Part shown: piece after piece, positions 13,298-22,823 of the stretch
Layout of the letters: each line of letters starts with the position of its first letter
Position numbering within the stretch: position 1 is the first letter of the stretch
Assembly (NCBI RefSeq): GCF_014931565.1
Contig: NZ_CP063353.1
Coordinates: 3,798,872-3,822,871 of the forward strand
Direction of reading: 5' to 3'
Length of the DNA: 24,000 bases
DNA from: Clostridium sp. 'deep sea'
GTDB lineage: Bacteria > Bacillota > UBA994 > PWPR01
Notes under the pieces: model-generated
What the model was told of the DNA's origin: nothing
The model's database searches: none
The model's input: the letters and a program-made list of their open reading frames with translations, nothing else
Position numbers and translations under genes: made by a program

Positions 13298-13307
13298 TAA
13301 ATAAATA

Positions 13308-13340
13308 ATATGGGGGACTTTTTGTCCTTCATATTATTTA
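13308..13340 (+). terminator. Intrinsic terminator after the activase gene
   Basis: ATATGGGGGAC (13308-13318), loop TTTTT, GTCCTTCATAT (13324-13334). All 11 positions pair on the plus-strand RNA, including two G-U pairs. On the minus strand those two positions become A-C mismatches. Confidence 0.6.
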
Positions 13341-14171: not shown

Positions 14172-15260
14172 ATGGAATTTCACAATAAAAAATATAACAC
14201 CGTTGCAGACTGGTATATTGGAGGCTTAGCCAAATTTTTAAGCCCCCTATATGAAGTAGTGCCAGAGAGCATTAGCATTAAAAAAAGTAAGTTTATTAAA
14301 GCTGAACAAGAGTTACATAGTTACATTAATAATCTATATCAAAATATGCATAATAATGCAGAGTTATATAATATACCTTTAGCAACTTTTGAGGGCAAAG
14401 ACTTTAACAAAAAAAGACTAAAGGTGCGTAAAGTTATCAACATCATTTTAGATTTTTTGTATAAACTTGCTCAACTTGCTACCCTAGAAGAATGTAGCTT
14501 AGTTTTAGCAATAGAAAACTGGCATAAAATAAGAGATGATAAAATAAAAAAGCTTAAATCCGAAAAAAAATTTAATAATCTTGTTTTGATATTAGGTTTT
14601 ACAGTAAATGTAAAGCAAAATATAGTTGTTATTAATCATAAAAATTACCCAGCTATGTTAATAGCCCTTAGTTACTATGCAAAGTTATGTAGCCAAGATA
14701 AAAAATATGGTTTTAGATACTTTTATCAGCTGGATTTTAGAAGATTTAATAACTATAAATTACAGATGAACGATGTTATAAACTCATTACCATTAGAGCT
14801 TAAAATAATGGTAACAGAAACAGATAATTTGTTAATGAAGTTAAAGTATCGCAAAAAAATAGAGCTTTATGAGGACTTTGGATATCGAGTAGCCTACTCC
14901 AATAAAGCAGGTGTGGTATATTATATTCATATTAATTCCTATAAAATAGATACTTATTATCATTATTTGCGTTGGGTTTTAAATTCAGCTCAATCGGATA
15001 AATGTATTAACACATTGATTCAAGAAGGTAAACAAAATATAGTAGATTACCTAAAACATAATATAGTACAATGTGACCCCAATTGTATACCAGGTTATGG
15101 TGCTAAATCACCAGAGCAATGCCAAGCACGTATTCATATACCATATTATGATCTTTATGTTTGTAAAGATAAAGGCTGTTTAGTAGGAATAGCTAGTTAT
15201 GAATTTGAGTATATTCAAGTTGTTTTAGAAATAATTAATGAGATTATTTCTAAAAAATAA
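14172..15260 (+). CDS. Hypothetical protein with a Cys-rich C-terminal segment
   Basis: Intact 362-aa ORF with RBS AAGGGG. I recognise no family. The C-terminal segment is QCDPNCIPGYGAKSPEQCQARIHIPYYDLYVCKDKGC. Confidence 0.6.
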   Translation: MEFHNKKYNTVADWYIGGLAKFLSPLYEVVPESISIKKSKFIKAEQELHSYINNLYQNMHNNAELYNIPLATFEGKDFNKKRLKVRKVINIILDFLYKLAQLATLEECSLVLAIENWHKIRDDKIKKLKSEKKFNNLVLILGFTVNVKQNIVVINHKNYPAMLIALSYYAKLCSQDKKYGFRYFYQLDFRRFNNYKLQMNDVINSLPLELKIMVTETDNLLMKLKYRKKIELYEDFGYRVAYSNKAGVVYYIHINSYKIDTYYHYLRWVLNSAQSDKCINTLIQEGKQNIVDYLKHNIVQCDPNCIPGYGAKSPEQCQARIHIPYYDLYVCKDKGCLVGIASYEFEYIQVVLEIINEIISKK

Positions 15261-15322
15261 AGATATAAAAATATAAAGTTGCTAAAAAATTTTATTTTTC
15301 TATAAAATATAAGGAAACCTAT

Positions 15323-15841
15323 ATGACAAAACTTAATAGAAAACAATTAAGGATTAATAACTATGATTACTCTAAACCTAACTATTATTTTGTAACTATC
15401 TGTACGTTCAATATGAATAACCTCTTTGGAAGAATAATTAATAACAAAATGAATTTAAATAGTAGTGGTGTAATAGTAAAAGACGCTCTTTTAACAACAA
15501 TATCTTATAATAAAACTTTTAAGCTTGATAAATATATTATTATGCCTAATCATGTACATGCTATTATTATTAAAAATAATATTTTAATAACAAAAAATTT
15601 ATTACCCAAGTCCACCACATCAATAAGTGATTTTATTTGTGAATTTAAGTCAAGAACTGTACATAAGTATATTCGTGCTGTAAAGAATAAAGAATGTCCA
15701 CCATTTAATAAAAGAATATGGCAACGTAGTTTTTATGACCATATTATAAGAAATCAACAGGATTACCAAAGAATTTGCAAATACATAAACACAAATCCTC
15801 AAAAGTGGCAGCAGGATAAATACTTCAATGCAAAAATATAA
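15323..15841 (+). CDS. rayT: REP-associated tyrosine transposase (RAYT), IS200-like HUH/Y1 family
   Basis: 172 aa. N-terminal NYDYSKPNYYFVTICT. HUH motif at MPNHVHAII (HVH codons 15551-15559). The C-terminal block IWQRSFYDHIIRNQQDYQRICKYINTNPQKW aligns with my recollection of the E. coli RayT/YafM block IWQPRFWEHAIRNTKDYRHHVDYIYINP. The candidate catalytic Tyr codon is at 15782-15784. Confidence 0.85.
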   Translation: MTKLNRKQLRINNYDYSKPNYYFVTICTFNMNNLFGRIINNKMNLNSSGVIVKDALLTTISYNKTFKLDKYIIMPNHVHAIIIKNNILITKNLLPKSTTSISDFICEFKSRTVHKYIRAVKNKECPPFNKRIWQRSFYDHIIRNQQDYQRICKYINTNPQKWQQDKYFNAKI

Positions 15842-15851
15842 AAAGTGATAA

Positions 15852-16900
15852 GCGGTGGAGGGCTTTATGTCCTCCATAATTAATAAGATAACCCACTCAT
15901 TAAAAAAGGCAGACACAAGGCCTGTCACTACGTAGAGTAACAGAAGTAAAATCCGTAGTGGAGGGCTTTATGTCCTCCAAAATTAATAAGATAACCCCCC
16001 TCAAAAAAAGAAGGCAGACACAAGGCCTGCCACTACGAAAGTAACAGAAGTAAAAGCAGTAGTGGAGGGCTTTATGTCCTCCATAATTAATAAGATACCC
16101 CCAAAGAAAACAAGGCAGACACAAGGCCTGCCACTATGTAGAGTAACAGAAGTAAAATCCGTAGTGGAGGGCTTTATGTCCTCCATAATTAATAAGATAA
16201 CCCCCTCATTAAAACAAGGCAGACACAAGGCCTGCCACTACGAAGAGTAACAGAAGTAAAATCCGTAGTGGAGGGCTTTATGTACTCCATAATTAATAAG
16301 ATACCCCCCATTAAAACAAGGCAGACACAAGGCCTGCCACTACGAAGAGTAACAGAAGTAAAATCCGTAGTGGAGGGCTTCATGTCCTCCATAATTAATA
16401 AGATACCCCTTCATTAAAACAAGGCAGACACAAGGCCTGCCACTACGAAAGTAACAGAAGTAAAAGCAGTAGTGGAGGGCTTTATGTACTCCATAATTAA
16501 TAAGATACCCCTTCATTAAAACAAGGCAGACACAAGGCCTGCCACTACGTAGAGTAACAGAAGTAAAATCCGTAGTGTAGGGCTTTATATCCTCCATAAT
16601 TGATAAAATAACCCTTCATTAAAACAAGGCAGACACAAGGCCTGCCACTACGAAGAGTAACAGAAGTAAAATCCGTAGTGGAGGGCTTCATGCCCTCCAA
16701 AATTAATAAGATAACCCACTCATTAAAACAAGGCAGACACAAGGCCTGCCATTACGTAGAGTAACAGAAGTAAAAGCCGTAGTGGAGGGCTTTATGTCCT
16801 CCAAATTAATAAGATACCCCCAAAAAAACAAGGCAGACCCAAGGCCTGCCACTACGAAGAGTAAAGTAATAAGCCGTAGTGGAGGGCTTTATGTCCTCCA
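15852..16900. repeat. Array of 21 REP-like hairpins: 11 Y-type on the plus strand and 10 Z-type inverted. The period is 97-104 bp. The layout is BIME/REPIN-like.
   Basis: The Y hairpin TGGAGGGC-TTTAT-GTCCTCCA starts at 15856, 15959, 16063, 16165, 16269, 16371, 16473, 16576, 16679, 16783 and 16880. Each copy except the first is preceded by GTAG. Between Y copies sits GGCAGACACAAGGCCTGCCACTAC, whose reverse complement is GTAGTGGCAGGCCTTGTGTCTGCC. The array starts 11 nt after the RAYT stop codon. Confidence 0.9.
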
Positions 16901-17034
16901 AAACGGTTTTCGTTTTTGTTAATCAAAAATTAAGAATTTCTTAAGTTTAAATTGAAGTTTTTTTAATTTTAGTTAGCTATACTAATAACATTCGGAGATA
17001 ACAAGTAGTTTATAACAAAAGGAGAGCAAATTAC

Positions 17035-17721
17035 TTGAAAACATTAATACTTACAAAAATAAAACCCATAGATTATAAGGATCTAAAAGATGTTAGCAGG
17101 TTTATTTCCGAAGAGAGGCTTGCTCGTGCAGAGCTATTTACAGACAATAACAGAAAAAATGAATTTATTACAGTTGAGATAGCTGCTTCATATTTTGTAT
17201 CAGAGGTTTTTAATATATCTTTACCTAAATTTAATGGCAAAGCGGGTGAAAAACCCTATTTATGTAATTATCCTAATATATCAGTTAGTCGTTCATATGC
17301 TGATAATTATGTAGTATTTGCCTTAGAAAATAATTTTGATATTGGTGTAGATTGCGAAAAAATAAAAAGCTTTGATAAAAACACCCTTAAGTATTTTTTT
17401 ACAGAACAAGAGTGTAGATATATTAATGACTCAAAGTGTCCTAATCTTGCTTATGCAATTATTTGGACTCGCAAAGAAAGTTATCTAAAGTGTACTGGTC
17501 AAGGTCTTGCTTTTGCTCTCAGTAAGCTTGATGTTACACCACAAAATAATTGGGTAAATAGTAATAGTAGGTATCCAATTTATAAGAACAACGATCAAGT
17601 TAAGAGTAAATTTATTAATAGCTATATATATAATGATCTTGTAATATCTCTCTGTAGTACTAGTGATAACAATAGCCCTACATTAACATTACAAGTTAAA
17701 AACATGAATTTAGGAGTATAG
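17035..17721 (+). CDS. Sfp-type 4'-phosphopantetheinyl transferase
   Basis: TTG start 8 nt after GGAGAG (17021-17026). PPTase motifs are GVDCEKI (the GxD(I/C)E motif), FTEQECRYI and WTRKESYLKCTGQGL (the W/F-x-x-KE-S/A-x-x-K motif). The 228-aa length fits Sfp type rather than AcpS type. Confidence 0.8.
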   Translation: MKTLILTKIKPIDYKDLKDVSRFISEERLARAELFTDNNRKNEFITVEIAASYFVSEVFNISLPKFNGKAGEKPYLCNYPNISVSRSYADNYVVFALENNFDIGVDCEKIKSFDKNTLKYFFTEQECRYINDSKCPNLAYAIIWTRKESYLKCTGQGLAFALSKLDVTPQNNWVNSNSRYPIYKNNDQVKSKFINSYIYNDLVISLCSTSDNNSPTLTLQVKNMNLGV

Positions 17722-17723
17722 CA

Positions 17724-19229
17724 ATGACAAAAACTATTATTGATTTTTTCGAAAATACAGCATTAAAGTATCGTTCTAAAATAGCAGTAGGCGATAAAAA
17801 CGCCAGTTTTACTTATGAGCAACTTATGGAAAAAGCCCAAAAAGTAGGTGCAGTTATTGCAGAAAAAGGCTTTATTAAAAGACCTATTGCGATATTGATG
17901 AATAGAACATGCAAATTGCCTGCAACAATGTTAGGTGTTTTATATAGTGGTAACTTTTATGTAGTTTTAGATAGTAACTCAACCTTTAATAGGCAACAGA
18001 AAATAGTAGACATTCTTAGGCCATCTGCTGTAATATATGAAAGTCAGTTTAATAATATAGTAAATCAGTTAAATGGTGAATTTGTGAAATTAGAGTTAGA
18101 AAAAATAGAACCTACAGCTAATGGTTACAAAAAACTCAATAAAGCAAAAAATCAAATACTTTCAACAGACCCTGCTTTTTCGATATTTACATCTGGTTCT
18201 ACTGGGTTCCCTAAGGGTGTATTAATAACTCATCAAAATGTTATATCATACATTGATTGGTTTACAACAAGTATGAAAATATCTAGTAATACAGTGTTTG
18301 GATCTCAAACTCCACTGCACTTTAGTATGTCGGTATCTGATTTATTCGCTACCTTAGCTAAAGGTGGCACATATCATATGATACCCAAAGAGTACTTTGT
18401 GTTTCCTGCAAAACTAATTGAATTTATGAACGAGCGTAATGTAAATACAATATATTGGGTGCCAACAGCGCTTGCTATTGTTGCCAAGTTTAATTTATTT
18501 AAATATACCAAGCCAACATCTTTAAATAAGGTATTATTTGCAGGTGAAGTTATGCCTATTAAATACCTAAATTATTGGAGAAGCTATTTACCTAATGTTA
18601 TGTATGCAAATTTATTTGGTCCAACCGAAACCACTGATATTTGCACCTATTATGTGGTTAATCGTGAGTTTGAGGATACCGAAAGTTTGCCAATAGGTAG
18701 TCCTTGTGAAAACTGTTGTGTTTATTTAATAAATGAACAGGGTGAACAGGTAGCTGATGGTGACATAGGAGAGCTCTATGTTTCAGGAGCATTTGTTGCA
18801 AAGGGTTATTACAATAACTATAAAAAAACTAAAGAGAGTTTTGTTCAAAATCCCTTACAATCGGCATACCCTGAGTTGGTTTATAAAACAGGTGATTTGG
18901 CAAGAAAAAATGAATACGGAGAGCTTGAATATTTGGGAAGAAAAGATTTTCAAATAAAGCGTAATGGTTATCGCATAGAGTTAGGCGAAATTCAGGCTGC
19001 ATTTGCTAAAGTTAAAGGTATAGAGTTATCAGTTTGTTTATATGATGAAAAGCAACAACAGATAGTATTGGTTTATGAAGGGGCTACACATTTAAAAGAA
19101 CAGTTAAAAAAAGTAGCTAATCAAAAACTTCCAGCATATATGCGCCCAGATAAATATATAGCTACTGATTGTTTCCCTAAAAACGCTAATGGAAAAATAA
19201 GTAAAAAACTATTGAAAAATATTATATAA
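17724..19229 (+). CDS. DltA-like carrier-protein ligase (stand-alone ANL adenylation enzyme)
   Basis: 501 aa, the size of DltA. Motifs: A3 FTSGSTGFPKGV, A5 NLFGPTETT, A7-A8 YKTGDLA...GRKDFQIKRNGYRIELGEI, A10 NGKISKK. It aligns without gaps to my recollection of B. subtilis DltA around FGSQTPLHFSMSVSDLFATLAKGGTYH. Starts 2 nt after the PPTase stop. Confidence 0.85.
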   Translation: MTKTIIDFFENTALKYRSKIAVGDKNASFTYEQLMEKAQKVGAVIAEKGFIKRPIAILMNRTCKLPATMLGVLYSGNFYVVLDSNSTFNRQQKIVDILRPSAVIYESQFNNIVNQLNGEFVKLELEKIEPTANGYKKLNKAKNQILSTDPAFSIFTSGSTGFPKGVLITHQNVISYIDWFTTSMKISSNTVFGSQTPLHFSMSVSDLFATLAKGGTYHMIPKEYFVFPAKLIEFMNERNVNTIYWVPTALAIVAKFNLFKYTKPTSLNKVLFAGEVMPIKYLNYWRSYLPNVMYANLFGPTETTDICTYYVVNREFEDTESLPIGSPCENCCVYLINEQGEQVADGDIGELYVSGAFVAKGYYNNYKKTKESFVQNPLQSAYPELVYKTGDLARKNEYGELEYLGRKDFQIKRNGYRIELGEIQAAFAKVKGIELSVCLYDEKQQQIVLVYEGATHLKEQLKKVANQKLPAYMRPDKYIATDCFPKNANGKISKKLLKNII

Positions 19230-19248
19230 AAATGGAGAGAGAAATATA

Positions 19249-19476
19249 ATGAACAAAATAATTGAGATATTGTCAGAGATAATACCAGGAGAAAATTTTG
19301 AAACCGCTAACAACCTTGTAGACGGAAAAATTTTAACATCTGCCAATATAATTCGTCTTGTTGCTAGTTTAAATGAGCAGTTTGATATTGAAATAACACC
19401 GCTATATTTGGTACCTGAAAATTTCAATTCAGTAGAGAGTATTTTTAATTTAGTGACTTTGCTTGACGAGGAATAG
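19249..19476 (+). CDS. Small carrier protein (DltC-like, 75 aa)
   Basis: RBS GGAGAGAG. GKILTSANIIRLVASLNEQFDI aligns with DltC GLLDSFGTVELLLAIENRFDI, with the Ppant-acceptor Ser conserved (codon 19339-19341, context TS rather than DS). Confidence 0.75.
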   Translation: MNKIIEILSEIIPGENFETANNLVDGKILTSANIIRLVASLNEQFDIEITPLYLVPENFNSVESIFNLVTLLDEE

Positions 19477-19481
19477 TATTC

Positions 19482-21038
19482 ATGCCTAATCGGATTTTTG
19501 TTTATTTTATACTGTATTTAGTCATGAATACCCTTATATACGCTGTTTGCCCTCGCAAACAGCGTTATATTGTGTTATTAATGTCTAGTTTAATTTTTTA
19601 TAGTGTTTTTAGTGGATATGGTGTTTTGCTGTTGTTATGCACTATTATTACTACACATTACACAGCTCTAGTTATGGATAAAATAGGGTTAGCATACATT
19701 ACTACTGGGTTAGCTAAGCCCGAGCGAAAAAAACTAAAAGCCCAAATTAAGCATAAAAAACGCCTTGTATTATGTTTGTGTATTGTTATTAATGTGGGCA
19801 TTTTGTTAATAACAAAGTATTTTAATTTTTTTTCAAGGTCTTTTAGTAAACTTATTGCTACTTTTGGTCTTAATTTGCCTGTTCATGTAATAAAAATTAT
19901 TTTACCTTTAGGTATTTCTTACTATACGTTACAAGCATTGAGTTATGTAATAGATGTATTTAGAGGTAAATATCCGGCAGAGAAAAATATTTTAAAGACT
20001 GCTTTATTTATTGGATTTTTTCCGCAACTGCATGAGGGACCATTTGGGCGATATGATAAGCTTATGCCTGTTATGTCAGCAGGTAAACAAATAAATTCTG
20101 AGAATTTGTATGAGGGAATTGCTCGTTTTTTGTGGGGCTTTTTTAAGATATTTATGGTCGCTAATCGGGTATCATTAATATCTGATATGGTCTTTAATGA
20201 TTACAGTTCATATGGTGGTTTTGCCATTATTATAGGCATAGTTGCCTTTACAATACAGCTTTATGCAGAGTTCTCTGGCTATATAGACATAGCTGTAGGT
20301 ATTGCTAAGGTATTAGGTATAGAGTTAGCTAAGAATTTTGATATGCCCTTTATATCACAAAATGTAGCTGAATTTTGGCGTAGATGGCATATTTCATTAG
20401 GATTATGGTTCCGTGATTATGTTTTTTATCCTGTTTCTACGTCAAAAGTAATGTCTAAATTAAGAAAAAAAGTAGGCTCTAAACTTGCAAATTTTGTATC
20501 TATAAATTTAGCAATGTTAACAGTATGGTTTTTAACAGGTATGTGGCATGGAGCAAGTGTAAAATACATTGTTTATGGTCTGTATTATTTTGCACTAATA
20601 ATGCTTTATAATTTGCTTTCACCCTATATAGAAAAATTATTGAAAAAGTATGAGATTAGTGCACATAACAAAATTCTTATAACAGTGAGAATAATAAAAA
20701 CACTTATACTTGTTGGAATAGGTATGTTAATTTTTCGAGCCAAAAATCTAAGAGTTTTTAGAATTATGTTAATGTCTGTTTTTACAAAAGGTACAATGCA
20801 ATTTAATATACTAGCTAAAATTGATTTAAAAGACTTAATTATACTTTGTATTTCTTTTGGATTAATGTTATTACCAGTATTTCTTAAGACTAAAAATATT
20901 GAAATAGATACTAAATATAATTCACTTTCATCTATTAAAAAGTATTGGATTTGCTTTACTGCATTTAGCATAATTGTTATTTTTGGAGCTTATGGATTTG
21001 GATATCTTCCGCCAGACCCAATATATGGAGGGTTTTAA
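19482..21038 (+). CDS. MBOAT-family membrane O-acyltransferase (DltB/AlgI-like)
   Basis: Polytopic 518-aa protein. It carries MBOAT signatures FWRRWHISLGLWFRDYVFYP (catalytic His) and LTGMWHGAS. Confidence 0.9.
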   Translation: MPNRIFVYFILYLVMNTLIYAVCPRKQRYIVLLMSSLIFYSVFSGYGVLLLLCTIITTHYTALVMDKIGLAYITTGLAKPERKKLKAQIKHKKRLVLCLCIVINVGILLITKYFNFFSRSFSKLIATFGLNLPVHVIKIILPLGISYYTLQALSYVIDVFRGKYPAEKNILKTALFIGFFPQLHEGPFGRYDKLMPVMSAGKQINSENLYEGIARFLWGFFKIFMVANRVSLISDMVFNDYSSYGGFAIIIGIVAFTIQLYAEFSGYIDIAVGIAKVLGIELAKNFDMPFISQNVAEFWRRWHISLGLWFRDYVFYPVSTSKVMSKLRKKVGSKLANFVSINLAMLTVWFLTGMWHGASVKYIVYGLYYFALIMLYNLLSPYIEKLLKKYEISAHNKILITVRIIKTLILVGIGMLIFRAKNLRVFRIMLMSVFTKGTMQFNILAKIDLKDLIILCISFGLMLLPVFLKTKNIEIDTKYNSLSSIKKYWICFTAFSIIVIFGAYGFGYLPPDPIYGGF

Positions 21039-21988
21039 TGAAAAAACATAAAATGAATTTCAAAATATTATGTTGTGTAATCTTATCTTTATCACTTTAC
21101 ACTTATATTTGTGTAATTTTTACCCCCAAATCAATTAATGATTTAGGCGGTAAAAACTATTATGGCGGAATGGGATTTTTAGCAGAACCCGAAAATTCTC
21201 TTGATGTAATCATGTATGGTAATTCAGATGTATATTCAGGGTTTATACCTGCATTGATGTATGAGAAATATGGTTTCTCTTCATATGCTTCTGGTGTGCA
21301 ACTTCAAAGTATCAAGAAAATAAATCACTTGTTAAAAGCGACTTTAAAAAAGCAACAACCAAAAATAGTAATCCTTGAGGTGGATTGTCTTTACGATAAA
21401 GACAGTTGTTTAATAAATAATAATAACCTTTTTCTTGCTTCGGTCATGTATCATACCCGCTGGAAAGAGCTCAAACTACGTGACTTTTATACACTCCCAA
21501 ACAGAAAAAATAAGTATGACATAACAAAAGGTTATGAGCACTCGAATTATGTTTATAAATTTAATCCCGGAAAATATATGGGGCATAGTACTGACAAGCC
21601 AGCTGCAATACCAGCAAAAAATATTAAACAGCTAAAGTTTTTTCTTAATACTTGTAGTAAAAAAAATATTAAAGTTATATTTTTAGAACTACCTAGTTCG
21701 GTATCTTGGACCTATGCCAAACATAATTATATAAGTAAAATAGCATCGGAAAATGATATTGCTTTTATTGACCTGAATATTCCAAACAGTAATTATCAGG
21801 CCGATTTTCAAAATGATTTTCGAGATAATGGTAATCACTTAAATGTATATGGTGCAAAAAAAACTACAACATTTATAGGGGATTTTATAGAAAAGAAGTA
21901 TAAAAATATAATCATAGAAGCTAAGAAAGCAACCGTATTAGACTATTGGAGAGATGTAGTATCCTATTACTATGAACAACTTAGTTAG
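21038..21988 (+). CDS. DltD-like membrane-anchored SGNH-fold esterase/acyltransferase partner
   Basis: Its ATG overlaps the MBOAT stop codon (TAATG). It has an N-terminal TM anchor. MYGNSDVYSG parallels the DltD IYGSSELS Ser block. The C-terminal FRDNGNHLNVYGA is an SGNH-type D-x-x-H block. Confidence 0.65.
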   Translation: MKKHKMNFKILCCVILSLSLYTYICVIFTPKSINDLGGKNYYGGMGFLAEPENSLDVIMYGNSDVYSGFIPALMYEKYGFSSYASGVQLQSIKKINHLLKATLKKQQPKIVILEVDCLYDKDSCLINNNNLFLASVMYHTRWKELKLRDFYTLPNRKNKYDITKGYEHSNYVYKFNPGKYMGHSTDKPAAIPAKNIKQLKFFLNTCSKKNIKVIFLELPSSVSWTYAKHNYISKIASENDIAFIDLNIPNSNYQADFQNDFRDNGNHLNVYGAKKTTTFIGDFIEKKYKNIIIEAKKATVLDYWRDVVSYYYEQLS

Positions 21989-22023: not shown

Positions 22024-22055
22024 GTAGTGGAGGGCTTTGTGCTCTCCATTTTTTT
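22024..22055 (+). terminator. Solo Y-type REP copy acting as the intrinsic terminator of the dlt-like operon
   Basis: GTAG-TGGAGGGC-TTTGT-GCTCTCCA (22024-22048) is followed by T7 (22049-22055), 36 nt after the stop at 21988. It has the same GTAG head and stem as the array units. Confidence 0.8.
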
Positions 22056-22139: not shown

Positions 22140-22823
22140 ATGAGACTACTAATTATTGAAGATGAAGTTGAATTAGCTAATAGCTTAAAAACTCGTTTAA
22201 ATACCATTGGTTATGCTGTAGATATTGCTTACGATGGTTTAGTCGGTGAAGAAAAAGCTTTAGTAAATAATTATGATATTGTTGTTTTAGATTTAAATCT
22301 TCCTAACAAAAATGGAATTGAAGTATGTAAAGCACTTAGAACAGAAGGTGTTGAGTCAGCTATTATAATGCTTACTGCTAGAGATACAGTTAAGGATAAA
22401 ACACTAGGATTAGATAATGGAGCAGATGACTATTTAATAAAGCCATTTGCCTTTGAGGAATTACGAGCCAGAATACAGGCTTTAGTACGCCGTAGTTATC
22501 AAAGAAGCAACCCCATAATAAAGCTTGATGAATTAGTAATAAATCCATTATCAAGAATGGTTACTTTTAATAATATAAAACTTAGCTTAACTACTAGAGA
22601 GTTTGATATTTTAGAGTATATAGCAGTTAAGTATCCCACAGTAGTTTCCACAGAAGATATCTTGGAACATGTTTGGGATGAAAACATTGATTCTTTTTCT
22701 AATGTTGTTAGAGTACATTTAGCTAACTTAAGAAGAAAGTTAAAAAATAATGTAGGAGATATAAAAATAGAAACAATAAAAGGTAAGGGGTATCGATTAT
22801 GTTTAAATTCAAAACAAGAATAG
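22140..22823 (+). CDS. OmpR/PhoB-family response regulator
   Basis: Receiver domain MRLLIIEDE...DIVVLDLNLP...KPF. Winged-helix output domain LTTREFDILEYI...GKGYRL. RBS AGGAGA. Confidence 0.9.
   Translation: MRLLIIEDEVELANSLKTRLNTIGYAVDIAYDGLVGEEKALVNNYDIVVLDLNLPNKNGIEVCKALRTEGVESAIIMLTARDTVKDKTLGLDNGADDYLIKPFAFEELRARIQALVRRSYQRSNPIIKLDELVINPLSRMVTFNNIKLSLTTREFDILEYIAVKYPTVVSTEDILEHVWDENIDSFSNVVRVHLANLRRKLKNNVGDIKIETIKGKGYRLCLNSKQE

Follow-up and report, generated by a model that had tools for sequence, protein, structure and literature searches.

A predicted RAYT gene bordered by a BIME-2-like array of GTAG-tagged hairpins in a deep-sea Clostridium

Work on REP elements and their RAYT partners comes almost wholly from Proteobacteria. 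The 2013 survey of Di Nocera (PMC3733652) covers eight phyla in a text without Firmicutes or Clostridia; the surveys consulted mention no REP families in these groups, and some RAYTs have been noted in Clostridia. The window analyzed here, a 24,000-nt stretch of the genome of Clostridium sp. 'deep sea' (contig NZ_CP063353.1), contains about 1 kb of alternating inverted hairpins that the initial annotation read as two diverged REP types, Y and Z. What kind of repeat is this, and how did it come to be reiterated? We conclude that the locus is probably a REPtron, that is, a domesticated RAYT/TnpA_REP gene with a 3' BIME-2-like array of cognate GTAG-tagged REP heterodoublets that was amplified locally. 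We favor this reading because a predicted RAYT with HUH, Y---NP, and GTAG-contact residues ends 11 nt upstream of the first hairpin. The repeat system is of a known kind, here found in a deep-sea Clostridium.

A covariance model run over the 24 kb recovered exactly 22 hairpin copies and no further significant match:

15852..16900, no strand assigned: tandem array, Y-(tail linker-Z inverted-head linker-Y) x10
15852..15876, + strand: Y copy 1, with a head short by 3 nt (GCG-GTGG)
15955..16900, + strand: Y copies 2-11, GTAG TGGAGGGC TTTAT GTCCTCCA, 25 nt each, starting at 15955, 16059, 16161, 16265, 16367, 16469, 16572, 16675, 16779, and 16876
15907..16855, - strand: Z copies 1-10, GTAG T GGCAGGC CTTGT GTCTGCC in the - strand reading, with GTAG ends at 15931, 16036, 16137, 16241, 16343, 16446, 16548, 16651, 16755, and 16855
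about 22024..22048, + strand: solo Y, with loop TTTGT and the wobble shifted by one pair

As the initial annotation had proposed, direct Y elements alternate with inverted Z elements: all 11 array copies of Y lie on the + strand (shuffled sequences are expected to contain none) and all 10 copies of Z on the - strand. Units are 97-104 bp long, and Tandem Repeats Finder (TRF) reports a period of 102 bp with 10.2 copies and 91% matches over 15855-16900. The array is a sharp GC island (41-43%, versus 30% for the background) and is extragenic, lying between the RAYT stop (15841) and the start of a PPTase gene (17035). The linkers are also as first described: the head linker (CTAC to GTAG) is 20-23 nt and well conserved, and the tail linker (body to body) is 29-34 nt, with a variable C/A tract. 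Taken with its GTAG ends outward, a Y plus an inverted Z makes an 81-nt, REPIN-like heterodoublet that folds as one long imperfect hairpin (-13.3 kcal/mol, z = -3.8). GC skew in the window is positive, which suggests that the + strand, which carries Y, is the lagging-strand template.

Only one copy occurs outside the array in the approximately 29 kb examined (24 kb plus 5 kb). This solo Y is extragenic too, between an ORF ending at 21988 and one starting at 22140; it begins 36 nt past the stop of the former (ORF 21038-21988), is followed by T7, and looks like a terminator from its sequence. It is kept in a related, 99.6%-identical strain (locus L001). Short-read Logan contigs of that strain end exactly at both edges of the array; the array therefore exists there as well, and the head of its Y copy 1 is intact. 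No match to a double array unit was found in plasmid and phage collections. One further hairpin in the window (13307-13330) matches Y at 16 of 24 positions, but it lacks the GTAG head and any covariance-model score, and we took it to be a conventional terminator separating convergent genes.

Both hairpin types have the GTAG head, 7-8 bp stem, and 5-nt loop originally attributed to them. The stem is 8 bp in Y and 7 bp in Z, three of its first four nucleotides are G or C in both, and 19 of the 22 copies have 0-1 nt between GTAG and the stem, the exceptions being Y1 (3-nt deletion), Z3 (ATAG), and Z9 (GTAA). Y and Z had been said to agree at 17 of 24 positions; the figure is 18, and the similarity itself stands, as none of 100,000 shuffles reached it. 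The four stem differences between the types amount to two fully compensatory pair swaps, and the loops differ by two transitions. The initial annotation correctly placed a G·T wobble at the second stem position from the loop in both Y and Z, read GTAG-first, and an A·C mismatch on the opposite strand; one stem pair in each type is thus not Watson-Crick. Also borne out are the change of the wobble to G-C in Y9 (16675-16699) and its shift one pair outward in the solo copy. The third stem proposed between facing heads does pair, but it is an automatic product, because the GTAGTGG heads are inverted, and it overlaps each hairpin by 2-3 bp.

Relatives of these hairpins occur far beyond Clostridium. 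A scan of genome contigs with the pattern GTAGTGGMRGGCNNNNNGYCYKCC gave at least 120 matches, and among the matches listed GTAGTGG hairpins with YTTRT loops span many phyla and have freely covarying stems. Pairing is found in 62 of 82 free stem cells of these listed matches versus 33.6 in shuffles, a level that 0 of 10,000 shuffles reach. At the wobble position the listed matches have GC, CG, AT, TA, GT, and TG pairs, and G·T exceeds A·C by 12 to 4 distinct sequences, which are not independent of one another. The exact Z 24-mer, arranged as a GTAG-outside doublet, is present in both Petroclostridium sp. X23 and a Peribacteria MAG (among the matches listed), and a further AT-rich organism has the exact Y as a solo copy; in these organisms the sequences sit at unrelated loci. 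Three of the listed matches lie within a few hundred nucleotides of RAYT homologs. Moreover, RAYT homologs with 42-46% identity have GTAG hairpins adjoining or within their genes, and a metagenome contig (L216) carries an independent 112-bp tandem array of a GTAG heterodoublet.

The gene that precedes the array was absent from the initial annotation. It and two minor features are as follows:

15323..15841, + strand: gene for a predicted RAYT/TnpA_REP-type HUH Y1 nuclease, 172 aa (profiles, PDB match, motifs)
15279..15308, + strand: promoter-like site TTGCTA-18-TAAAAT ahead of the RAYT gene (consensus scan; site counts not above shuffles)
15612..15618, - strand: possible REP head relic, GTGGTGG, within the RAYT gene (inference; match not significant)

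We predict that the gene encodes a REP-associated tyrosine transposase (RAYT/TnpA_REP). This annotation is supported by the Pfam profile Y1_Tnp (30.3 bits, cutoff 23); the best NCBIfam match is REP_Tyr_transpos (67.1 bits, below its cutoff of 80), and homologs of the protein carry the name RayT. Its sole PDB match is 4ER8, the E. coli TnpA_REP. Following the RAYT motif definition of PMC6006769 (HUH, a conserved W, and Y---NP), the motifs PNHVHAI (HUH), IWQ, and YINTNP align with 4ER8 residues 59-61, 94-95, and 115, and the predicted catalytic Tyr153 lies within YINTNP. Residues W132, Q133, D138, H139, and R142 have spacing identical to that of E. coli W94, Q95, E100, H101, and R104; the E-to-D change at this GTAG-contact patch also occurs in subclasses 2.5 and 2.7. 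This genome supplied a single further homolog, P0005, at 46-48% identity.

TnpA_REP genes of subclass 2.4 have REP insertions inside the gene (PMC6006769), and this subclass corresponds to RAYT group 4 (Bertels 2017, PMC5581495). The window RAYT appears closest to the subclass 2.4/group 4 lineage, judged from features of its homologs rather than from a reference-sequence phylogeny. Five homologs (L122, L125, L247, L249, and L251) have in-frame REP doublets between HUH and Tyr. The window gene, in which this distance is 76 aa and which has no C-terminal extension, contains no intact intragenic REP; the possible relic head at 15612-15618 sits where the homologous genes hold their doublets. There is no REP hairpin in the sequence read upstream of the gene. 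Between the two strains the gene has three nucleotide differences, all nonsynonymous, which could indicate relaxed constraint, though three changes are too few to judge.

The marks of a GTAG-tagged REP (Di Nocera 2013; Quentin 2018, PMC6006769) are a hairpin preceded at 0-2 nt by the tetranucleotide GTAG or GTGG, a basal stem of at least 7 paired nucleotides with a G/C-rich foot, a loop of 2-5 nt, and an extragenic location in many dispersed copies, at least one of them within 1 kb of tnpA_REP. The position of GTAG, the stem and loop, the extragenic placement, and the proximity to tnpA_REP all agree with this description, as does compensatory stem variation. The alternation of REP types, the defined linker classes, and the tandem reiteration are those of a type 2 BIME, and the low copy number and divergent paralog (P0005) are typical of a RAYT. 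E. coli BIMEs of this type are further characterized by unit numbers that differ from strain to strain at a locus and by binding of gyrase, IHF, or Pol I. The REP/BIME reading of the array, already given in the initial annotation, is now well supported by evidence beyond what was available to it, namely, the RAYT gene 11 nt upstream, the compensatory swaps between Y and Z, and the covariation within the wider family. Weighing against the REPtron reading are the single copy beyond the array in the approximately 29 kb examined, the lack of a REP on the upstream side of the gene, the REP_Tyr_transpos score, and the in-array stem mutations, most of which disrupt pairing.

How might such an array arise? 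TnpA_REP recognition is strand-specific and acts on ssDNA (PMC8266576). By homology with the E. coli enzyme, the RAYT would bind the folded GTAG-first strand of each hairpin as ssDNA, contact GTAG via the conserved W-Q...D-H..R patch, cleave near GTAG, and possibly rejoin strands. The doublet and its spacer would then have been amplified locally to about 10 copies, either via RAYT-mediated cleavage and strand transfer or via slippage or unequal recombination by the host. A G·T wobble could be tolerated because folding would be required on the GTAG-first strand only; in AT-rich hosts, it may be the form by which G-C pairs drift toward A-T. The copies of the array may now be decaying roughly neutrally. 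The earlier proposal that the wobble marks the active strand is consistent with strand-specific recognition (PMC8266576) and with the excess of G·T in the family, but the orientation of GTAG already defines that strand, so the wobble adds nothing to it. The accompanying statement that Y folds on the plus strand and Z on the minus strand was too strong. The opposite strands also fold as ssDNA (-4.7 versus -6.1 and -4.2 versus -5.4 kcal/mol), with a wobble advantage of 1.2-1.4 kcal/mol.

The amplification step could also have been passive. According to this explanation, which we consider possible rather than probable, an existing REP doublet and its spacer were multiplied by slippage or unequal recombination into a functionless minisatellite that has no present interaction with the RAYT. 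Stem variants there had been described as preserving pairing, a selective account, given that four of five events break the pair (C>A in Y5 and Y7, G>T and G>A in Y8, and G>A in Z1) and only Y9 keeps it. A bias toward pair-preserving substitutions thus exists between Y and Z and in the wider family, but not in the array alone. The in-array mutations therefore provide no support for current selection or activity on the array copies. Units have variants in common in a mosaic fashion, as unequal exchange would produce, the variable linker is a homopolymer-like C/A tract prone to slippage, and the first Y lacks part of its GTAG head. On the other hand, the array abuts a RAYT gene with a gap of just 11 nt, and tandem doublet arrays are found again within this REP family in taxa that are unrelated, as well as in the BIME-2 of E. 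coli (PMC3333891). The minisatellite explanation concerns only the amplification step and leaves the REP nature of the units undisputed.

A role at the RNA level, which we regard as rather unlikely, would make the hairpins terminators or 3'-end stabilizers of the RAYT mRNA, and also insulators between the RAYT gene and the downstream dlt-like operon, with a G·U wobble that reflects selection on RNA. Folding asymmetry between the strands is indeed far larger for RNA than for DNA (-15.5 versus -8.6 and -11.2 versus -7.6 kcal/mol). On the - strand, 9 of the 10 Z copies are flagged as terminator-like, with a T-rich run behind them (TTGTTTT and similar), and both solo Y copies lie on the coding strand 9-36 nt past a stop codon and are followed by T-rich sequence. 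G-T pairing in the stems of GTAG REPs was noted in 2013 and explained at the RNA level (Di Nocera et al., PMC3733652). However, the Y copies within the array have no T runs behind them, and ten terminators in a row would have no obvious use. The GTAGTGG head, which is conserved and unpaired, and the adjoining RAYT favor recognition of ssDNA by a protein, and there was no match in Rfam at gathering thresholds. The best permissive Rfam match, the C. difficile sRNA SQ1002, scored 25 bits versus a gathering score of 128 and was treated as chance. Selection at the RNA and ssDNA levels is not mutually exclusive.

Returning to the REPtron reading, we note an extension of it that we offer as speculation and consider unlikely. 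The GTAGTGG head, the YTTRT loop, and the near-loop irregularity of the helix could together be the recognition code of a pan-bacterial, subclass 2.4-like RAYT lineage, in which case the wobble would be kept rather than tolerated. In low-GC hosts the irregularity may be the G·T wobble, in a role analogous to that of the stem bulge recognized by E. coli TnpA_REP. If true, such a code would explain why the identical Z 24-mer occurs in Clostridium, Petroclostridium, and a Peribacteria MAG and why Y and Z keep the wobble at one shared position. As a corollary, each of the genome's two divergent RAYT paralogs may serve a single REP type.

E. coli BIMEs have been reported to bind gyrase or to extrude cruciforms. 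By extension, the array might be a nucleoid or topology site, either bound by a protein such as gyrase or HU or extruding cruciforms, with the RAYT a mere neighbor. The architecture does parallel BIME-2, the array is a sharp island of 41-43% GC in a 30% GC genome, and its alternating inverted repeats are able to pair as long hairpins. Yet we find this very improbable: similarity to E. coli BIMEs does not extend beyond GTAG, and the GTAG head and the asymmetry of the wobble are left unexplained. When the array linkers were checked by eye for IHF sites, no match to WATCAANNNNTTR was seen. A CRISPR-like array or coding repeat, suggested by palindromic repeats at regular spacing and by mechanical ORFs that overlap the array on the - strand, can be dismissed, as the "spacers" are conserved between units, the neighboring ORFs scanned have no cas domains, and the units, at 97-104 bp, do not come in multiples of 3, which leaves no reading frame that continues from one unit to the next.

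The locus leaves the current picture of REPs unchanged. It is a clean low-GC example, with an intact RAYT abutting a 10-unit heterodoublet array, and its hairpin type (GTAGTGG head, 5-nt YTTRT loop) is common to many phyla, with covarying stems among the matches listed. This makes it a convenient system in which to ask what a subclass-2.4-type RAYT reads (head, loop, or near-loop irregularity), whether the enzyme is required for tandem, BIME-like amplification, and whether it is selection on ssDNA or on RNA that the G·T pairs reflect.

Several known systems invite comparison. Like IS200/IS605 TnpA, the RAYT is an HUH/Y1 enzyme that, by analogy, would act on strand-specific, folded ssDNA hairpins with a 5' tetranucleotide guide. 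An IS200/IS605 insertion sequence was rejected, as the tyrosine motif is Y---NP instead of Y---Q, no left-end and right-end hairpins enclose the gene, and the gene is not present in multiple copies (the sole paralog is approximately 47% identical). As in the REPINs of Bertels and Rainey, a Y with an inverted Z and outward GTAG forms one long imperfect hairpin, and related genomes have GTAG-outside doublets of the same element. Unlike REPINs, the unit is a heterodoublet that has been seen only as part of a tandem array, and both dispersed Y copies are singletons. With subclass 2.4 TnpA_REP the window protein shares Y---NP, the conserved W/Q/H/R GTAG-contact residues, a variable insert between HUH and Tyr, and the lack of a C-terminal extension. 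Its closest homologs carry the in-frame intragenic REP doublets that are the hallmark of the subclass, whereas the window gene has a possible relic only.

Heterodimers, clusters, and G-T pairs have all been described for GTAG-tagged REPs (PMC3733652). Members of this superfamily have a terminal GTAG and stems of 6-9 bp and lie just downstream of genes; their heterodimers have alternative complementary stem residues and G-T pairs, and their clusters are dimers reiterated tandemly with flanking DNA, all as seen here. The loops, however, are mostly 2-3 nt in that survey versus 5 nt (YTTRT) here. The survey also gives a rule that spacers are conserved in GTAG-outside dimers and variable in GTAG-inside dimers, and this is reversed in the array.

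A further parallel is with the REPtrons of E. coli, in which BIMEs flank both sides of the gene; here, the array is on one side only. The host is a low-GC Clostridium, the RAYT appears to belong to a different subclass, and the short, near-perfect 7-8 bp stems with one G·T contrast with long stems that have an AA/GC bulge. Homology to the E. coli y/z REPs and S/L linkers is not apparent beyond GTAG, in a comparison with the published y consensus (PMC8266576) rather than a database search. BIME-2 elements are tandem y/z2 arrays bordering tnpA_REP, for which amplification models have been proposed, and E. coli TnpA_REP makes tandem products in vitro (Ton-Hoang 2012, PMC3333891). Like them, the locus described here alternates two REP types (Y/Z in place of y/z2) with two classes of linker, has the GTAG head 5' of the hairpin on the active strand, and presents well-conserved tandem copies at one locus, bordering a single-copy TnpA_REP gene.

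Two covarying types of GTAG hairpin form a tandem doublet array beside an intact RAYT gene in which the GTAG-contact residues are conserved. The array (15852-16900) repeats in tandem every 102 bp (10.2 copies, 91% matches by Tandem Repeats Finder, which also called a 206-bp period) and is a GC island (41-43% versus 30% for the window). The first type, Y (GTAGTGGAGGGCTTTATGTCCTCC), occurs 11 times inside the array, always on the plus strand, with 0 copies expected in shuffles. The second, Z (GTAGTGGCAGGCCTTGTGTCTGCC), has 10 copies, all on the minus strand. A solo Y lies at 22024-22047 (+), with 3 mismatches to the 24-mer. A covariance model built from Y, Z, and related sequences, run over the 24 kb with filters off, recovers exactly these 22 copies; the next score is 12 bits (E = 0.28). 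As initially described, inverted Z and direct Y alternate, in the order Y-(tail linker-Z inverted-head linker-Y) x10, and each unit measures 97-104 bp. The conserved head linker (CTAC to GTAG) spans 20-23 nt, slightly wider than the 21-23 nt noted at first, and few of its columns vary. The variable tail linker (body to body) is 29-34 nt, with variation mostly in the C/A tract.

The RAYT gene (15323-15841, +; 172 aa) has its stop codon 11 nt ahead of the first Y, and its GC content (21-23%) is under the 30% background. The protein matches Pfam Y1_Tnp at 30.3 bits, above the cutoff of 23. Among NCBIfam models, REP_Tyr_transpos scores best, at 67 bits, below its curated cutoff of 80; many homologs bear the name "REP element-mobilizing transposase RayT". 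The sole solved relative is E. coli TnpA_REP with bound REP (4ER8). Alignment to this structure identifies the HUH motif (PNHVHAI), places Tyr153 on the catalytic Y115, and aligns W132, Q133, D138, H139, and R142 one-for-one with W94, Q95, E100, H101, and R104, listed as the GTAG contacts of the E. coli enzyme (Quentin et al., PMC6006769). The tyrosine motif, YINTNP, is of the Y---NP type, the class 2 (TnpA_REP) signature; IS200 has Y---Q (PMC6006769). A second RAYT homolog, 46-48% identical, is encoded in the 3.83-Mb genome of Clostridium sp. 'deep sea'.

Among homologs whose DNA was retrievable, the closest (42-46% identity) have GTAG hairpins adjoining the RAYT gene, and also GTAG hairpin doublets in frame inside it, between HUH and Tyr. 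In one of them, L247, GTAGGGGCAGATTCCATATCTGCCC...GGGCGGATATTGAATCCGCCCCTAC encodes VGADSISA...RADIESAPT.

In-frame GTAG hairpin doublets in RAYT homologs (contig, position)
L122, 3118-3311
L247, 2295-2371
L249, 2127-2308
L251, 2293-2353
L125, 3319

Intragenic REPs are the hallmark of subclass 2.4, equal to Bertels group 4 (Quentin et al., PMC6006769). The only candidate trace of a REP head in the window RAYT is CCACCAC at 15612-15618, at the position aligned to the doublets of the homologs; it is possibly a relic head. Based on this possible relic, the intragenic REPs of the homologs, the HUH-to-Tyr distance of 76 aa, and the lack of a C-terminal extension, we tentatively place the window RAYT in or near subclass 2.4.

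A related strain (Logan sample SRR14270296) is 99.6% identical in the array flanks. One of its contigs terminates 43 nt past the RAYT stop, within the first Y, and another starts 2 nt ahead of the last Y. Contigs that end at both array edges indicate that the array is present in this strain and broke its short-read assembly. In this strain GTAG is intact in the first Y, whose loop is TTCAT; the window copy has a 3-nt deletion in its head. The solo Y is kept. All three nucleotide differences in RAYT between the strains are nonsynonymous (R37S, I39S, and A170V). The ORF just upstream of RAYT (14172-15260, 362 aa) contains 25 of the 40 strain mismatches over 10.5 kb, a local divergence hot spot, and has no family match in Pfam or NCBIfam.

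Y and Z share one architecture: GTAG, a stem of 8 bp (Y) or 7 bp (Z), and a 5-nt loop. They agree at 18 of 24 positions (initially counted as 17), a similarity reached by 0 of 100,000 shuffles of Z; the best unrelated 24-mer in the window matches at 16. Of the six differences, two are transitions in the loop; the other four lie in the stem and amount to two fully compensatory swaps, one of A-T to C-G and one of G-C to A-T. Both types carry a G·T pair second from the loop on the GTAG-first strand, which becomes G-C in Y9 and is displaced one pair outward in the solo copy. Pairing is not generally preserved by stem variants within the array, contrary to the initial annotation: four events break it and one, in Y9, preserves it. 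Y5 and Y7 have in common a C>A change that gives G·A, Y8 carries G>T (giving T·C) and G>A (giving C·A), and Z1 carries G>A (giving A·C). This 4:1 ratio is about that expected under neutral mutation.

Folding is also less exclusive than had been proposed. Y was described as foldable on the plus strand and Z on the minus strand, but the opposite strands also fold as ssDNA (-6.1 kcal/mol GTAG-first versus -4.7 opposite for Y; -5.4 versus -4.2 for Z). The asymmetry is greater as RNA (-15.5 versus -8.6 and -11.2 versus -7.6 kcal/mol, respectively). The facing heads are complementary, but the "third stem" assigned to them is not separate: it overlaps the feet of both hairpins and results automatically from two inverted GTAGTGG heads. 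In the minimum-energy structure, the whole Y-linker-inverted-Z segment is predicted to fold into one long imperfect hairpin (-13.3 kcal/mol, z = -3.8), a REPIN-like doublet with GTAG ends outward.

Related hairpins were identified in other genomes. A loose-pattern scan of a genome collection listed 131 matches, of which 96 have both free stem positions paired (about 37% expected), so these are more than noise. Among the matches listed, the loops CTTGT, CTTGC, TTTAT, TTTAC, and GTCYC recur across phyla. Petroclostridium sp. X23 and a Peribacteria MAG both contain the exact Z 24-mer, which in X23 forms a GTAG-outside homodoublet spaced by 26 nt. Candidatus Scatovivens has a stem-swapped version with the wobble kept, and at least three matches have a RAYT homolog no more than a few hundred nt away. 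A metagenome scan, with the head and a YTTRT loop fixed and two stem pairs free, returned 146 matches (41 distinct sequences). Here 62 of 82 free cells are paired versus 33.6 in shuffles, with 0 of 10,000 shuffles as high, and the wobble position is variously GC, CG, AT, TA, GT, or TG. In an AT-rich contig from another organism (L214), an exact singleton Y lies 9 nt past a stop codon. Contig L216 has a tandem array with a 112-bp period and at least five units, each with GTAGTGGCGGGCTTTATGCCCGCC and, after 3 nt, an inverted second type, GTAGGGGAGGGGTTTATCCCCTCCC. This is the window's heterodoublet-array architecture in a GC-richer genome.

Several 111-113-bp GTAG-heterodoublet tandem arrays, with TTTAT loops in both hairpins, occur in a deltaproteobacterium-like genome (L216 100-700, L044, L117, L204, and L232), an instance independent of the window. 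A related family, GTAGTGGCGGGCGTCYCGCCTGCC, has its G·T at a different stem position and a second GTAG/GTTG hairpin directly after. It occurs in GC-rich MAG contigs, mostly Verrucomicrobia (L066, L070, L081, L085, and L093), and flanks RAYT homologs in L070 and L066. A 203-bp tandem repeat in L180 (2277-2709) contains GTAGTGGCAGCCCTTGTGGCTGCC once per unit; the repeat may be located within repetitive coding sequence, and would then be a possible intragenic REP.

Low-GC hosts mostly have G·T as the near-loop pair and high-GC hosts G-C or C-G; A-T takes this place in the L125 RAYT flank and some AT-rich contigs. Among distinct, otherwise well-formed sequences, we counted G·T/T·G on the GTAG-first strand against A·C/C·A, which are wobbles on the opposite strand. 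The counts are 8 to 3 in the metagenome scan, 4 to 1 for recurrent-loop sequences among the genome-collection matches listed, and 10 to 21 in the noise-dominated rest of those matches. The first two sets combined give 12 to 4 (one-sided binomial p ~0.04, for phylogenetically non-independent sequences). This excess agrees with, but does not prove, selection for folding of the GTAG-first strand, whether at the ssDNA or RNA level. Frequent G-T pairs in GTAG REPs were previously taken as a sign of RNA function (Di Nocera et al., PMC3733652). TnpA_REP binds and processes the REP strand only, not its complement (Corneloup et al., PMC8266576), so the active strand is already defined by GTAG orientation.

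By homology, RAYT would bind the folded GTAG-first strand as ssDNA, cleave near the hairpin, and potentially rejoin strands. Doublets and spacer could then be amplified locally, either by the enzyme, as modeled previously (PMC3333891, PMC2817692), or by host recombination or slippage. The mosaic of variants common to units fits repeated unequal exchange. Given the positive GC skew of the window and the location of most genes on the plus strand, we infer that the lagging-strand template, with its exposed ssDNA, is probably this strand, on which Y and the solo copy lie. Host-level roles are possible: on the minus strand, 9 of 10 Z copies precede a T-rich run and were flagged as terminator-like, and solo Y copies occur just past stop codons, ahead of T runs.

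Other features of the window
13307-13330, 12-bp hairpin with two G·T pairs, between convergent radical-SAM activase and Crp-family genes
16814-16981 (-), weak Rfam match to Clostridioides difficile sRNA SQ1002 (RF03533), spanning the last array unit and downstream spacer
17035-21988, dlt-like operon downstream of the array, with a two-component system after it

The hairpin matches Y at 16 of 24 positions and lacks a GTAG head; it is possibly a decayed REP, and probably an ordinary bidirectional terminator. The SQ1002 match scores 25 bits versus a gathering score of 128 (E = 0.006). The operon comprises genes for a 4'-phosphopantetheinyl transferase and a DltA-like adenylation enzyme, a 75-aa ORF that was called in the contig of the related strain only (L246 2376-2603) and may specify a carrier protein, and genes for a DltB-like MBOAT protein and a 316-aa protein that matches no family.

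Bertels et al. (PMC5581495) note only the occurrence of some RAYTs in Clostridia, and the REP surveys cited here do not mention Firmicutes or Clostridia (PMC3733652, PMC3333891, PMC2817692); the host here is clostridial. Among known systems, the nearest parallel is the BIME-2-bearing REPtron of E. coli, in which alternating y/z2 units stand in tandem beside tnpA_REP (PMC3333891). Compared with the published E. coli y consensus, Y and Z have no sequence homology past GTAG, and their stems are short and near-perfect, whereas E. coli REP stems are long and bulged. Unlike in the REPtron, the array flanks RAYT on one side only, and this RAYT is of another subclass than E. coli TnpA_REP. Dispersal through the genome is one of the traits that define REPs. 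Y and Z, known in the source genome from the 24-kb window, follow the structural rules of GTAG-tagged REPs (PMC3733652, PMC6006769), in which heterodimers, clusters of reiterated dimers, and G-T pairs have already been described (PMC3733652).
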